From the UHGV virus genome UHGV-0057520: 30,871 nucleotides of DNA. One strand, given 5' to 3'. The notes under the pieces were generated by a model. The model had not been told where the DNA came from, made no database searches, and saw nothing but the letters and a program-made list of their open reading frames with translations. Origin of the DNA: a virus. The position numbers and the translations under genes were made by a program. Below, piece by piece: positions 7,736 through 19,238 of this stretch. Every line of letters begins with the position of its first letter. The stretch's first letter is position 1.

Positions 7736-7920
7736 TGCTTAGCCCATCCCAATCCCTTCAATACCAGAAAGAAAGCGTCGAGCGAGCTTTAACGTGCGCT
7801 AACTGCGGTCAGAAGCTGCATGTGCTGGAAGTTCACGTGTGTGAGCGTTGTATATATGAATGCTTAAATATGGTGGAACATAATGAGAAATATAAGCAAC
7901 ATAGACGAATTAAGAAATAA
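7735..7920 (+). CDS. small Cys-rich protein (NinF-like zinc ribbon)
   Basis: 61 aa with a CxxC...CxxC pattern; its 3' end runs into the AT-rich HNH gene. Confidence 0.4.
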   Translation: MLSPSQSLQYQKESVERALTCANCGQKLHVLEVHVCERCIYECLNMVEHNEKYKQHRRIKK

Positions 7921-8389
7921 ATTATCATATGATGATGTTTTAGGTGTACTTAGATGGAAAGTGTCTCCTTCTAATAATGTTAAGGTTGGCAGTGTTGCTG
8001 GTTACATTAGGAGTGATGGTTATAGGATGTTAACTATCGATGGTGTAATTACTTATGCTCACCACGTTATATGGATGATAAATAATGGTGAGATTCCATT
8101 AGGGTATAAAATTGATCATATAAATGGAGTAAGGTCAGATAATAGGCTATCTAATCTTCGATTGGTTACACACCAACAGAATGCACAGAACCAAAAGAGA
8201 AAAATAACCAATTCGTCAGGAGTGACTGGAGTATATTTCAATAAAGAGAGATGTAAGTGGATTGCGAATATATGCGTAGATGGGCGCACCAAATATCTTG
8301 GAATATTTGCTAGCATCATTGACGCTATTGCAGAAAGGAAGAGGGCAGAAAAAGAACTGGGTTTTCATGAAAACCATGGCAGACCATAA
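7883..8389 (+). CDS. HNH homing endonuclease with AP2-like DNA-binding domain
   Basis: 168 aa; HNH motif IDHINGVRSDNRLSNLRLVTHQQNAQN; C-terminal SGVTGVYFNKERCKWIANICVDGRTKYLGIF resembles an AP2 domain; markedly AT-rich. Confidence 0.75.
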   Translation: MRNISNIDELRNKLSYDDVLGVLRWKVSPSNNVKVGSVAGYIRSDGYRMLTIDGVITYAHHVIWMINNGEIPLGYKIDHINGVRSDNRLSNLRLVTHQQNAQNQKRKITNSSGVTGVYFNKERCKWIANICVDGRTKYLGIFASIIDAIAERKRAEKELGFHENHGRP

Positions 8390-9297: not shown

Positions 9298-9482
9298 ACG
9301 CCACAATTCAAACGATACCAGAGCTTCTTATCCAGACACGAGGCAATCAGACCGAAGTGGCGAGGATGCTTTCCTGCGCAAGAGGAACAGTGCTCAAGTA
9401 CAACCGAGACAGCAAAGGTGAGCGTCACGTAATAGTTAACGGCGTCCTGATGGTCAAACAAGGCAAGAGGGGAAGACGATGA
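9294..9482 (+). CDS. NinH-like protein
   Basis: TIPELLIQTRGNQTEVARML.C.RGTV.KY parallels lambda NinH (TIPDMLVEAYGNQTEVARRLKCSRGTVRKY). Confidence 0.65.
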   Translation: MNATIQTIPELLIQTRGNQTEVARMLSCARGTVLKYNRDSKGERHVIVNGVLMVKQGKRGRR

Positions 9483-9997
9483 GCATAAGAGAACTAAACC
9501 TCACCAAAGAGCAGCACGAGTGGCTGAATGGCTGGCTTGAACTGTGGGGCGCATGGGTTTATTCAGGTCGTCTGGAAAAGCGCATGAGCAGCGTAATAGC
9601 GAAGTTCATGGAGAGCGTAGAGCCGGGAAGAGTTATGACAAGGCCAATGTGTAATGATGATGATGGAATGTTGATTTCTCAGGTCGTCGATTCCGTCATG
9701 TGCATTGACAAGAAAGCCTTTGGAATCCTCCTCAGCTACTACGCTCATGGTTCATCTAAGCGAGCAATTGCATCCTACTATCACGCGACTGCAAAGCCAC
9801 GCAAGATGTGTGGACGTGGTGGCGAGGGATGGAGAAAGCCTTCACTGGCAACCTGTAGAAACGAAATTGACGACATCCTGAAAGCGTCGTTATTTGTTTT
9901 GTACCAACCAATGCAAAATGCTTTCAAAATGCGTAAACGTGTTGAGAAAGTTAAGCATGTTGCTGTTAAAAGCCTTGACATGCAATTAGCCATTTAG
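9479..9997 (+). CDS. Q: late-gene antiterminator Q
   Basis: 172 aa, last gene before pR'; N-terminal WLELWGAWV motif resembles DLP12-type Q (QuuD) proteins; conserved position upstream of the lysis genes. Confidence 0.75.
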   Translation: MSIRELNLTKEQHEWLNGWLELWGAWVYSGRLEKRMSSVIAKFMESVEPGRVMTRPMCNDDDGMLISQVVDSVMCIDKKAFGILLSYYAHGSSKRAIASYYHATAKPRKMCGRGGEGWRKPSLATCRNEIDDILKASLFVLYQPMQNAFKMRKRVEKVKHVAVKSLDMQLAI

Positions 9998-10004
9998 CCA
10001 TAAT
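9975..10004 (+). promoter_or_regulatory. late promoter pR' candidate
   Basis: -35 TTGACA (9975-9980), 18-bp spacer, -10 CATAAT (9999-10004), overlapping the end of Q. Confidence 0.55.
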
Positions 10005-10014
10005 TAGAGGGTAA

Positions 10015-10056
10015 GCTGCCGTTAGTGACTCTTAAGTTGCAACGGTGGCTTTTTTT
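10015..10056 (+). terminator. stem-loop plus U-run just downstream of pR' (tR'-like)
   Basis: GCTGCCGTT...AACGGTGGC forms a 9-bp stem (two G-U pairs) with a 17-nt loop, followed by TTTTTTTATTT. Confidence 0.45.
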
Positions 10057-10060
10057 ATTT

Positions 10061-10135
10061 GGGTCAGTCGTATAAAGGTCATTACGGAAGGCTGTTAACC
10101 TTCTTATCGTGGTTCGAGTCCACGCTGTCCCGCCA
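10061..10135 (+). tRNA. tRNA-like gene, anticodon GUU (Asn), non-canonical D-arm and one acceptor-stem mismatch
   Basis: Manual fold: acceptor 6 of 7 bp, perfect anticodon stem GAAGG/CCTTC with loop CTGTTAA, T-arm CGTGG-TTCGAGT-CCACG, 3' GCCA. Confidence 0.5.
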
Positions 10136-10140
10136 AATAT

Positions 10141-10216
10141 GCTGGTTTAGCTCCAATGGTAGAGCAGTCGCCTTGTAAGCGAATGGGTAGCGGTTCAAGT
10201 CCGTTAACCAGCACCA
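10141..10216 (+). tRNA. tRNA-Thr (anticodon UGU)
   Basis: Manual fold: perfect acceptor stem GCTGGTT/AACCAGC, D-arm GCTC-CAATGGTA-GAGC, anticodon loop CTTGTAA, T-loop TTCAAGT, discriminator A and CCA; 5 nt after the first tRNA. Confidence 0.7.
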
Positions 10217-10458
10217 TAACTGAGCCGTAGCCACTGGCTATCCTGGATTCATCAGTGATAGTTACGCTGCGGCCTTCTACACATGACCTTCGTGAAAGCG
10301 GGTGGCAAGAGGTTGCGCTAACAACCTCCTGCCGTTTTGCCCGTGCATATCGGTCACGAACAAATCTGATTACTAAACACAGTAGCCTGGATTTGTTCTA
10401 TCAGTAATCGACCTTATTCCTAATTAAATAGAGCAAATCCCCTTATTGGGGGTAAGAC

Positions 10459-10782
10459 ATGAAGATGCCAGAAAAACATGACCTGTTAGCCGCCATTCTC
10501 GCGGCAAAGGAACAAGGCATCGGGGCAATCCTTGCGTTTGCAATGGCGTACCTTCGCGGCAGATATAATGGCGGTGCGTTTACAAAAACAGTAATCGACG
10601 CAACGATGTGCGCCATTATCGCCTGGTTCATTCGTGACCTTCTCGACTTCGCCGGACTAAGTAGCAATCTCGCTTATATAACAAGCGTGTTCATCGGCTA
10701 CATCGGTACTGACTCGATTGGTTCGCTTATCAAACGCTTCGCTGCTAAAAAAGCCGGAGTAGAAGATGGTGGAAATCAATAA
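10459..10782 (+). CDS. S: class I holin S (dual-start holin/antiholin)
   Basis: 107 aa, essentially identical to my recollection of lambda S, including the MKM dual-start motif. Confidence 0.9.
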
Positions 10783-17948: not shown

Positions 17949-19238
17949 ATGGCTAACCAATTAGCAAAAGACCTTGAAATCATGTTCGAAAACTACGTTG
18001 AAGGCTTTGAGGCCGCCTGCGTAGTTTCCCATAACGCTAAAAAATTCCGTCCCGGTGATACAGCAATGCAGCGAGCAGGTGATGTTCTGTATCGTCCGCA
18101 GCATTACCACATGAACATTGAGGAAGGCCTCGATCTCAGCAGCAAAACGCCTACAGCACTGGTTCAGCGCCTTGTTCCTTCTGTGTTCAAGGAGCCGAAA
18201 AACATTCTGTACACTCTGGATGCGCGTGAAATGCGTGACCCTGAGCATAAAACTGAAGCTGGTCGCGCCGCAGGTATGCGCCTTGCTGCACAGATTGACT
18301 CTGACCTGATTTCCATGGTTACGCAGCGTGCTACTAACGTGATCACAATGTCTGACTCAACCACAGGTACACAGGGCCGTGATTTGTGGAACTGTGCGGC
18401 AGGTACACAGGGCCGTGATTTGTGGAACTGTGCGGCAGGTATTGATGCCACCATGACGGCGATTGGTGTACCGCAGGGTATCAACCGTCGCTCTTTCTGG
18501 AACCCCTTCAACTACAAAGACCTTGCTGGCGAGCTTGGTCACCGTGCCTACGCTCAGGGCGCAACCCTGACAGCATACGAAAAAGCGCAGATCCCTCCGG
18601 TTGCTTCCTTTGATAGCTACAAGACCGATATTTCTGGTCGATTACCGAAAGGAAGCGCTGAATCCTTGACAGTATCAGACCAACCTGAACACAAGGTTGA
18701 AGCGAAAGATTCAAATGGTATGCCAGTTGATAACCGACAGGGGACTATTACGGTATCTGCATCTGGCTTGCAGGTTGGTGATGCGTTCACCATTGCCGGT
18801 GTGAATTCCGTACACCAGATCACAAAAGATACCACCGGGCAACCGCAGGTATTCCGTGTTCTGGCTGTTAGCGGAACTACCGTAACAATCTCTCCAAAGA
18901 TTCTCCCTGTTGAAAATACCGATGTTGCGAGTCGTCCATATGCAAACGTCGATGCCAAACCGGCAGAATCAGCAGCAATCACCATTCTCAACAAGAACGC
19001 AGCACCTGCTAACCTGTTCTGGGCTGATGGTTCTGTTGAGCTGATGTACGGCAAACTAGCGTTCCCGACTGGTCAGGGTCCACAGGTAATGACAGCAACC
19101 ACCGAGCAGGGCGCTACGCTGATCATGTCTTACGCCTTCGACCACATCAAAGGCGTAACCACTGCTCGTTTCACCACTCTGTACGGTTGCTCTGTACTTG
19201 TTCCTGAATATACGGGCATCGTTATTGCCGGGCAGTAA
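17949..19238 (+). CDS. major coat protein (P22 gp5-like)
   Basis: 429 aa; several blocks parallel P22 gp5 as recalled (FRVLAVSGTTVTISPK, RPYANV, LFWADGSVEL); contains the tandem duplication at 18365-18436. Confidence 0.85.
   Translation: MANQLAKDLEIMFENYVEGFEAACVVSHNAKKFRPGDTAMQRAGDVLYRPQHYHMNIEEGLDLSSKTPTALVQRLVPSVFKEPKNILYTLDAREMRDPEHKTEAGRAAGMRLAAQIDSDLISMVTQRATNVITMSDSTTGTQGRDLWNCAAGTQGRDLWNCAAGIDATMTAIGVPQGINRRSFWNPFNYKDLAGELGHRAYAQGATLTAYEKAQIPPVASFDSYKTDISGRLPKGSAESLTVSDQPEHKVEAKDSNGMPVDNRQGTITVSASGLQVGDAFTIAGVNSVHQITKDTTGQPQVFRVLAVSGTTVTISPKILPVENTDVASRPYANVDAKPAESAAITILNKNAAPANLFWADGSVELMYGKLAFPTGQGPQVMTATTEQGATLIMSYAFDHIKGVTTARFTTLYGCSVLVPEYTGIVIAGQ
18365..18436 (+). repeat. perfect 36-bp tandem duplication inside the coat gene, in frame
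   Basis: AGGTACACAGGGCCGTGATTTGTGGAACTGTGCGGC occurs twice back to back, encoding two copies of a 12-residue unit (cyclic form TQGRDLWNCAAG). Confidence 0.9.

Follow-up and report, generated by a model that had tools for sequence, protein, structure and literature searches.

Two tandem transfer RNA (tRNA)-like genes lie between the late antiterminator gene Q and the holin gene S of UHGV-0057520, a virus genome stretch of 30,871 nucleotides that we call the window, and they raise the question of what such genes do at the head of a late operon. The window represents a P22-like (Lederbergvirus) Escherichia coli phage or prophage, with top matches over 25 kb to vB_EcoP-720R6, Huey, phiv205-1, CUS-3 and HK620. 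From 5' to 3', the interval runs from the end of Q and the late promoter pR' through the terminator tR', tRNA-Asn, tRNA-Thr and the S leader to holin S. The original prediction for this locus had described the promoter, a terminator-like hairpin and the two tRNA-like genes, and had regarded the site as an empty cargo slot in which the Asn-like gene might be a pseudo-tRNA. Our analysis confirmed the observation, and the interpretation was partly supported. The reading that we favor, with a probability of roughly 70%, is that two intact, functional tRNA genes directly behind tR' would be transcribed first in the late operon, after Q has rendered RNA polymerase resistant to termination. The Thr tRNA would evade nucleases and supply decoding of ACA codons, and the Asn tRNA would likely do the same job.

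Checking the candidates with tRNA predictors and a covariance model, as had been proposed, led to acceptance of both and rejection of neither. As described earlier, they are an Asn(GUU) and a Thr(UGU) gene 5 nt apart; the order, to be added here, is tRNA-Asn before tRNA-Thr. ARAGORN called both. Against Rfam RF00005, tRNA-Asn scored 55.3 bits (E = 1.6e-9) and tRNA-Thr 61.5 bits (E = 3.3e-11), with E values for the whole window and a gathering score of 29; both scores are far beyond chance. Both tRNAs fold as cloverleaves of the 7/4/5/5-bp type with the core nucleotides (U8, A14, G18G19, U33 and the GTTC of the T-loop). In tRNA-Asn these include U8, A14, G18G19, the CUGUUAA anticodon loop, the TTCGAGT T-loop, G73 and CCA. 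Its anticodon arm (GAAGG-CUGUUAA-CCUUC) has a stem of five Watson-Crick pairs. The acceptor mismatch and the degenerate D-arm that had been noticed are both present, as U4·U69 and as a weak D stem with U13·U22 in addition to three pairs; all other stem positions are paired. In tRNA-Thr the anticodon arm (GUCGC-CUUGUAA-GCGAA) contains a G27·A43 mismatch, with all other stem positions paired. The identity elements of AsnRS (anticodon and G73) and the identity rules for Thr are established in the tRNA-identity literature. The Asn gene carries G34-U35-U36 and G73, and the Thr gene carries G1-C72, C2-G71, G35, U36 and A73. With these elements present in the sequence, the host AsnRS and ThrRS would be expected to charge the two tRNAs. 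For tRNA-Thr, the rescue of ACA decoding by the identical sequence under attack by Old lends indirect support to expression, processing and charging in vivo (PMC12445682; bioRxiv 10.64898/2026.07.10.737580).

The homologues of tRNA-Asn retained the structure. All stem substitutions were compensated, both in the Mulock/ST16 copies (3) and in the RCIP0034 copy (8), and not one broke a pair. Pairs were tallied by explicit structural position, because the MAFFT alignment put the indels in the D-loop and variable loop of the RCIP0034 gene in the wrong place. The Klebsiella-phage copies changed 6:67 from AU to GC, 7:66 from GC to AU and 28:42 from AU to CG with pairing kept. The U4·U69 mismatch was kept in RCIP0034 although its D, anticodon and T stems all differ, and it is U·G in Oslo. 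The gene is 100% identical in phage 21, HK446, Kapi1, Sf6, L and JLK-2012, and such conservation in phages of E. coli, Shigella and Salmonella whose Q modules differ argues against a pseudo-tRNA. PGAP/RefSeq annotates tRNA-Asn and tRNA-Thr in E. coli genomes with no pseudogene flag. These features identify the Asn gene as a genuine tRNA gene rather than a pseudo-tRNA, and U4·U69 is best read as a conserved feature rather than a sign of decay.

In the Thr family, 96.4% of cells were paired and 9 pairs showed double changes. The covariation score was 0.320, compared with 0.151 in shuffles, and none of 500 shuffles reached the observed value. The anticodon arm, including G27·A43, was invariant in all five copies of the array found between Q and the holin gene, while the acceptor stem covaried. 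This pattern points to selection on the arm itself.

The original prediction had named alignment to a known, unrecognized element as a result that would refute it, and the interval did align to the phage 21/Sf6 cassette followed by the lambda S leader. The 486-bp interval has matches in 176 phage records and is 98.4% identical to Sf6, whose record annotates a promoter ('nearly identical to phage 21 late promoter'), qut, tR', and tRNA-Asn and tRNA-Thr ('similar to phage 21'). The 156-nt cassette matched both Sf6 (AF547987, 36065-36220) and phage 21 (OL657228, 39591-39746) at 155 positions, the single difference falling in the 5-nt spacer. The tRNA-Thr sequence is 100% identical to tRNA-Thr21 of phage 21 and to the Thr(UGU) tRNA of HK446. 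We set the identity of tRNA-Thr21 through the phage 21 genome record and the published description of its C28U/G42A changes and short stem (PMC12445682). The phage L and epsilon34 papers also describe Asn/Thr tRNAs at this position in some P22-like phages. Promoter, terminator, tRNA pair and leader are all already known and annotated, and the alignments assign the element to the phage 21/Sf6-type late-leader tRNA cassettes. The interval can be annotated outright as a tRNA-Asn and tRNA-Thr of this type, followed by the lambda S leader. The cassette was present in 61 phage records. Of 5,426 complete E. coli genomes, 369 (about 7%) carry it and 1,146 have the lambda-type S leader, so roughly a third of such late regions hold the cassette.

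An alignment of the window with Sf6, HK75, Kapi1 and lambda revealed a mosaic of three blocks that assort independently. The first, comprising the Q end, pR' and tR', is 97-98% identical with Sf6 and HK75; in lambda and Kapi1 its place is taken by a Q and 6S region of the lambda type. The second (10059-10218) is the tRNA pair, 99-100% identical with Sf6 and Kapi1; HK75 and lambda have an unrelated segment here. The third (10219-10458) is common to all five. The cassette stands behind a phage 21-type Q/pR' in the window and Sf6, and behind a lambda-type Q/pR' in Kapi1 and HK446. Its junctions are the tR' T-run and AACTGAGCC, and the tRNA pair behaves in the alignment as a cassette that swaps in and out between these two points. 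The backbones that carry it include Lederbergvirus, phage 21 (Jouyvirus), the siphoviruses Oslo and Flyfo, and Klebsiella phages.

The same slot also holds longer arrays, each starting with this Asn gene: Asn-Phe-Thr in Flyfo, and Asn-Phe-Thr-Arg in Mulock and ST16-OXA48phi5.2. Further arrays there are Asn-Arg in RCIP0034, Asn-Thr*-Gly in JLK-2012, and Asn with a degenerate Thr-derived gene in L/ST64T. The annotated tRNA-Thr of JLK-2012 (JQ347801, piece 981-1056) is chimeric. Its first 26 nt are those of the cassette Thr gene and the rest is thrU-like; its anticodon stem is broken and ARAGORN made no call. A tRNA-Gly(UCC) and tciA/tciB follow this gene (JQ347801, piece 1060-1734). In phage L (MW013502, piece 481-552) and ST64T, a gene annotated as tRNA-Leu(UAA) has the acceptor stem and A73 of the cassette Thr gene and an aberrant anticodon arm, and it too received no ARAGORN call; it seems to derive from the Thr gene by degeneration or retargeting. 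In HK75 (HM173637), the piece at 1232-1290, opposite window positions 10059-10218, resembles the 3' half of a tRNA or transfer-messenger RNA (tmRNA), with a T-arm GCCGGTTCGATTCCGGC and an acceptor-like strand. ARAGORN did not call a tRNA in this segment, and the Rfam tmRNA model gave 20.2 bits (E = 2.4e-5), below its gathering score of 47. The piece may be a decayed tRNA at the same slot.

The promoter and hairpin proposed to precede the tRNAs were both borne out. The pR' promoter is sigma-70-like, with TTGACA at 9975-9980, an 18-nt spacer and CATAAT at 9999-10004, and matches 11 of 12 consensus positions. The direct repeat TTAGCC/TTAGCC (9986-91 and 9994-99) between the hexamers resembles a Q-binding element. 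The promoter aligns with the curated -35, Q-binding element and -10 of phage 21, in which the repeat sequence is not the same; the Q-binding repeats and -10 of the window are of the Sf6/L type. The window and the curated late leader of phage 21 do not differ from TAAGCTG (10012-18) to the end of the terminator. The predicted transcription start at 10011 and the predicted pause element follow this alignment, using the phage 21 reference annotation (start at 39541, sigma-dependent pause element at 39542-48). The terminator region (10011-10060) folded at -20.2 kcal/mol (z = -5.4), and none of 200 shuffles folded as well. The hairpin is followed by T7-A-T3 at 10050-10060, and tRNA-Asn begins directly thereafter. 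A simple terminator scan missed tR'; its status as a terminator rests on the folding and on three independent annotations, in Sf6, HK75 and phage 21.

This arrangement suggests how the pair would be expressed. By homology with phage 21, pR' would fire constitutively and its transcripts would end at tR' after ~40-50 nt. Q would load at the promoter-proximal pause, leading to read-through of tR' into the Asn and Thr genes, the S leader, and the lysis and morphogenesis genes. A promoter scan found no other promoter-like site near the tRNAs, and there is no space for a promoter between tR' and the Asn gene. Judged by the position of that gene directly after the U-run of tR', the tRNAs would be made only by Q-modified polymerase that passes the terminator. 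RNase P and 3' trimming would then free both tRNAs, whose CCA ends are encoded. The Thr(UGU) tRNA could stand in for the product of the single host thrU gene when Toprim nucleases that attack the anticodon stem have destroyed it. It could also raise the capacity for ACA, which is used more than any other Thr codon in the late genes. Most likely, the Asn(GUU) tRNA would serve in the same way for tRNA-Asn, a secondary nuclease target.

A role in counter-defense is supported by the identity of the Thr tRNA. P2-lambda interference has Old as its effector, a P2 nuclease that cleaves host tRNA-Thr(UGU) after C28 and C40 of a paired CNG and thereby kills (PMC12445682). The tRNA-Thr21 of phage 21 is resistant to cleavage and protects cells, and was described as having C28U/G42A changes and a shortened anticodon stem (PMC12445682). 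Resistance needs the altered CNG and the shortened stem together (PMC12445682). The window tRNA-Thr has exactly U28, A42 and G27·A43, where the host thrU arm reads ACUGA-CUUGUAA-UCAGU. At positions 28-30/40-42, host thrU has CUG/CAG and host asnT has CGG/CCG, compared with UCG/CGA in the window tRNA-Thr and AAG/CUU in the window tRNA-Asn. The anticodon stem is shortened in tRNA-Thr by G27·A43 and not in tRNA-Asn, which has five pairs. The HK446 Thr(UGU) restores plaquing of the Old-sensitive phages HK97, HK542 and Bas34, and E. coli thrU does not (bioRxiv 10.64898/2026.07.10.737580). Other anti-Old Thr tRNAs are tRNA-Thr6 and those of T4 and Bas32 (PMC12445682; bioRxiv 10.64898/2026.07.10.737580). 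The window tRNA-Thr shows no sequence-level difference from tRNA-Thr21 and HK446 Thr, and the anti-Old activity shown by others for this sequence would be expected in the window phage as well. To call the cargo site empty was misleading: the tRNAs themselves are the cargo, one of them with demonstrated anti-defense activity. The cassette is a common one with a gene recently shown to defeat P2 Old, and the residual interest lies in the role of its Asn partner.

A second nuclease, AriB of the PARIS system, cleaves E. coli Lys(UUU), Thr(UGU) and Asn(GUU) at 40|41 beside U36-A-A-U39, and mutation of U39 abolishes cleavage (PMC12409363). The Lys, Thr and Asn variants of T5 jointly neutralize PARIS (PMC12409363, PMC11464382). 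Positions 36-41 read UAAUCA in host thrU and UAAUCC in host asnT. In the window they read UAAGCG (Thr) and UAACCU (Asn), and in T5 UAAGCA (Thr) and UAAGUU (Asn). The window has two of the three main AriB targets, both with U39 replaced (by G39 and C39) and position 41 changed, as in T5. The T5 set, unlike the window, includes a tRNA-Lys(UUU), and there is no detailed homology between the two sets of sequences. From its U39G and A41G changes, the window tRNA-Thr would be predicted to evade AriB. ARAGORN found only two tRNAs in the 30.9-kb window, neither of them Lys, and we downgraded a PARIS-specific role on the lack of tRNA-Lys(UUU).

Several points weigh against a counter-defense role for the pair. 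The T5 Lys tRNA was required for PARIS rescue in every case tested (PMC12409363), and the window has no phage Lys copy. The window tRNA-Asn has one of the two Old-resistance factors only, the altered CNG, together with a full five-pair stem, and in tRNA sequencing the species reduced more than 2-fold by Old did not include Asn (bioRxiv 10.64898/2026.07.10.737580). An unrelated tRNA often differs from the host at positions 39 and 41 by chance, which makes the motif argument weak when taken alone. HK446 also encodes a protein inhibitor of Old, Oad2, and the authors doubt that anti-Old activity is the selected role of the tRNA; in their hands, lambda was not rescued from Old when the Thr tRNA was supplied by itself (bioRxiv 10.64898/2026.07.10.737580).

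The Asn gene may be no passenger, and instead the second half of a two-tRNA counter-defense cassette behind tR' in temperate lambdoid phages. It has the anticodon of a tRNA that both Old and PARIS AriB attack as a secondary target, and neither recognition motif is present in its anticodon arm. On this proposal, the cassette would supply nuclease-evading replacements for both non-lysine targets of the Old and PARIS Toprim nucleases, and the Asn-Thr tandems in the phage 21/Sf6 group, P1 and N4 would reflect convergent selection by nucleases, not codon usage. We put this forward tentatively, as a possibility with less than even chances. The HK446 record (JQ086372, 35097-35252), which has no tRNA annotation here, matches the whole 156-nt Asn and Thr cassette at 100%. 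The HK446 study speaks of 'a single' tRNA and does not mention Asn (bioRxiv 10.64898/2026.07.10.737580), so the Asn gene appears to have been overlooked in that phage.

The most durable alternative is that the tRNAs serve codon supply only, raising the decoders for codons overused in the late genes with no part in anti-defense. We compared 17 late genes (5,687 codons) with 40 K-12 genes. ACA was 3.4-fold enriched (p = 8e-17), at 18.8 per 1000 codons (30% of Thr codons) in the late genes and 5.5 per 1000 (10%) in K-12, and the host has a single thrU gene. Asn codons numbered 55 per 1000 in the late genes compared with 38 per 1000, and the coat gene (17949-19238) used AAC 16 times and AAU 3 times. 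The phage L paper argues likewise, pointing to AAC as 24 of 25 coat Asn codons. However, stronger enrichments occurred for codons without a phage tRNA, namely AGG (5.8-fold), AGA (5.1-fold), UCA (3.8-fold) and AUA (3.8-fold). The case for Asn was weaker, since AAC was only 1.25-fold enriched (AAU 1.8-fold). K-12 has four asn tRNA genes. A pure supply role also fits poorly with the invariant Thr anticodon arm beside a covarying acceptor stem. Moreover, an extra host thrU gave no rescue from Old and the phage Thr tRNA did (bioRxiv 10.64898/2026.07.10.737580), so the sequence differences matter, which counts against supply as the sole function. We consider supply alone unlikely, at long but not negligible odds. 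The two roles are not mutually exclusive, and codon supply is a plausible second benefit of the Thr tRNA. The ACA enrichment and the single thrU gene also explain why loss of thrU is so damaging to such phages.

The remaining alternatives fared much worse. According to the first, the slot is empty, and a larger module of tRNAs and toxin has left behind the Asn-like gene as a pseudo-tRNA in decay. Both irregular pairs are real, and degenerate tRNA-derived genes do occur at this site in JLK-2012 (the chimeric Thr), L/ST64T (the second gene) and HK75 (the fragment). The Asn score, the complete core and identity nucleotides, the fully compensated stem changes and the retention of U4·U69 in diverged copies all speak against decay, however, and nothing remains of a toxin module: the downstream DNA is the intact lambda S leader. 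The earlier statement that the site holds no toxin or other cargo gene was correct in that no open reading frame (ORF) with a coding signal lies between the tRNAs and the lysis genes in an ORF scan of the interval. The sole ORF of at least 50 aa there (50 aa, 10255-10407) was rejected as hidden cargo, because it has no Shine-Dalgarno sequence and its substitutions among five phages are all non-synonymous. We regard the decay account as very improbable.

Equally hard to credit is the idea that prophage integration damages a host tRNA gene and that the tRNAs make up for the loss. P22-like phages do integrate into tRNA genes such as thrW and argU (phage L and epsilon34 papers), and the idea was proposed for HK446 (bioRxiv 10.64898/2026.07.10.737580, discussion). 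But integration into thrW or argU rebuilds the host gene from the attP sequence (phage L and epsilon34 papers), and the cassette encodes Thr(UGU) and Asn(GUU) rather than the thrW (CGU) or argU species. Genes behind tR' should, in addition, be largely silent in a lysogen, and the same cassette travels with unrelated backbones. We rejected integration compensation on these grounds: the wrong anticodons, the position behind the terminator and the unrelated backbones.

In the least probable account, the tRNAs serve mainly to let RNase P and RNase E into the late mRNA, so that the pause/terminator leader is cut off and the S transcript acquires its 5' end and stability. This account has in its favor that tRNA-Asn starts right after the tR' U-run, that a conserved structured leader follows the pair and that processing of co-transcribed tRNAs would necessarily cut the late transcript, but it is next to negligible given that the same S leader serves HK75 and lambda, which have no tRNA there, that a processing signal alone needs no conserved anticodons, identity elements or CCA, that the identical Thr sequence rescues ACA decoding under Old and so has a shown decoding function (PMC12445682; bioRxiv 10.64898/2026.07.10.737580), and that anticodon mutants of another phage Thr tRNA were reported to be processed yet to lose the phenotype (PMC12445682).

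The coordinates of the features are collected in Table 1.

Table 1. Features from Q to S in the window, with the evidence for each
Feature	Position	Strand	Evidence
Q, late antiterminator gene (172 aa, phage 21/Sf6 gp59 type)	9479-9997	+	ORF; Pfam Phage_antitermQ, E = 1.3e-25
pR' late promoter	9975-10004	+	promoter scan; annotated pR' in Sf6 and HK75
Predicted late transcription start (10011) and sigma-dependent pause element TAAGCTG (10012-18)	10011-10018	+	alignment to phage 21
tR' intrinsic terminator: hairpin (10013-10051) and T-rich run to 10060	10013-10060	+	fold; annotated tR' in Sf6, HK75 and phage 21
tRNA-Asn(GUU), 75 nt, G73, CCA encoded	10061-10135	+	ARAGORN; Rfam
tRNA-Thr(UGU), 76 nt, A73, CCA encoded	10141-10216	+	ARAGORN; Rfam
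Lambda-type S-gene leader, non-coding, structured	10217-10458	+	alignment, folds, inverted repeats
Holin/antiholin S, first late protein gene	10459-10782	+	ORF; Pfam Phage_holin_3_1, E = 2.4e-30

The non-coding stretch with nested inverted repeats that had been noted before the holin gene is the S leader. The repeats are there, but the length is 242 bp and not about 220 bp. Positions 10219-10458 are identical to lambda 44946-45185 at 232 of 240 bases (96.7%), and the identity is 98.3% with HK75 and 97.9% with Kapi1 and Sf6. The repeat GAGGTTG/CAACCTC (10309-10315 and 10322-10328, within 10309-10328) extends to 12-nt arms (10304-10315/10322-10333) that are 92% complementary. Three more inverted repeats lie in the leader, and its hairpins were more stable than shuffles (z = -3.3 and -4.0). 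A hairpin of the sdi type (10437-10453) stands directly upstream of the S start. Rfam, searched with permissive settings over 9900-10500, gave the two tRNAs only, and no known RNA family in the leader.

Two side observations concern the structure of this leader. The hairpin region at 10304-10343 is GC-rich and followed by GTTTTG; this terminator-like element lies within the S leader and is conserved in lambda. One stem position of the 10304-10333 hairpin varies uncompensated, being A·C in the window and G-C in lambda. Tandem terminators downstream of lambda pR' were reportedly described in the 1980s. In addition, GAACAAATC (10358-66), GGATTTGTTCTAT (10389-10401) and ATAGAGCAAATCC (10428-40) could form mutually exclusive pairings. 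ATAGAGCAAATCC adjoins the hairpin just upstream of the S starts, and all three segments are identical in lambda (~45085-45167). The region 10358-10440 could be an alternative-structure switch in the S leader; we know of no description of such a switch at this place.

Of the flanking genes, Q has homologues that bear the same name in the annotations of Sf6, HK75 and E. coli prophages, and its 3' end overlaps pR'. The S gene has dual starts, ATG 10459 (S107) and ATG 10465 (S105), and Sf6 genes 60 and 61 are annotated as S107-like and S105-like. Further upstream, in the nin region, a 168-aa ORF (7883-8389, + strand) contains an HNH_3 endonuclease domain (Pfam E = 1.2e-19) and is probably a homing-endonuclease-type insertion.

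Unrelated coliphages have tRNA genes with this pair of anticodons as well. P1 (AF234172, piece 725-878) has Asn(GUU)-Thr(UGU) in the same order as the window, 2 nt apart, downstream of the C1-controlled ban promoters. N4 (EF056009, piece 437-686) has Asn-Ser-Thr, in an array with Ser and Pro, and the genes are unannotated in its record. The Thr genes of P1 and N4 are 80-86% identical to that of the window, while their Asn genes have another acceptor stem. P1 Thr retains the CNG motif and P1 Asn retains UAAU, both of which the window tRNAs lack. In P1, tciA lies ~730 bp downstream of the Asn-Thr tandem, past plp and upl.

The Stx phage 933W has a matching position for its tRNA and toxin genes, so the comparison drawn earlier with Stx phages held. 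Its order is Q, pR', qut, terminators, ileZ-argN-argO and stx2AB. The slot between Q/pR'/tR' and the lysis genes is the same as in the window, and tRNA genes head the late transcript. Unlike the window, 933W carries Ile/Arg/Arg tRNAs with a putative dedicated tRNA promoter, toxin genes and ~3 kb of further cargo, whereas in the window the tRNAs abut tR' and the S leader comes directly next.

Among the nearer relatives, the lambda leader has the same hairpins and the same dual-start S gene, and its sdi stem-loop sets the S107/S105 ratio. Unlike the window, lambda has ~170 bp of unrelated sequence before the S leader in place of the tRNA pair. The lambda pR' transcript is a 194-nt RNA of the 6S type. 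HK75 is a tRNA-less sibling, with the Q, pR', tR' and S leader of the window and without the tRNA pair. Phage 21 has the same tRNAs in the same order, likewise 5 nt apart and placed directly after tR' and ahead of the holin gene, and its early transcribed region and terminator are also the same. It differs from the window in its Q-binding element and -10, and in its holin S21 with a leader of its own. Sf6 shares with the window both the Q/pR' type and the lambda-type S leader.

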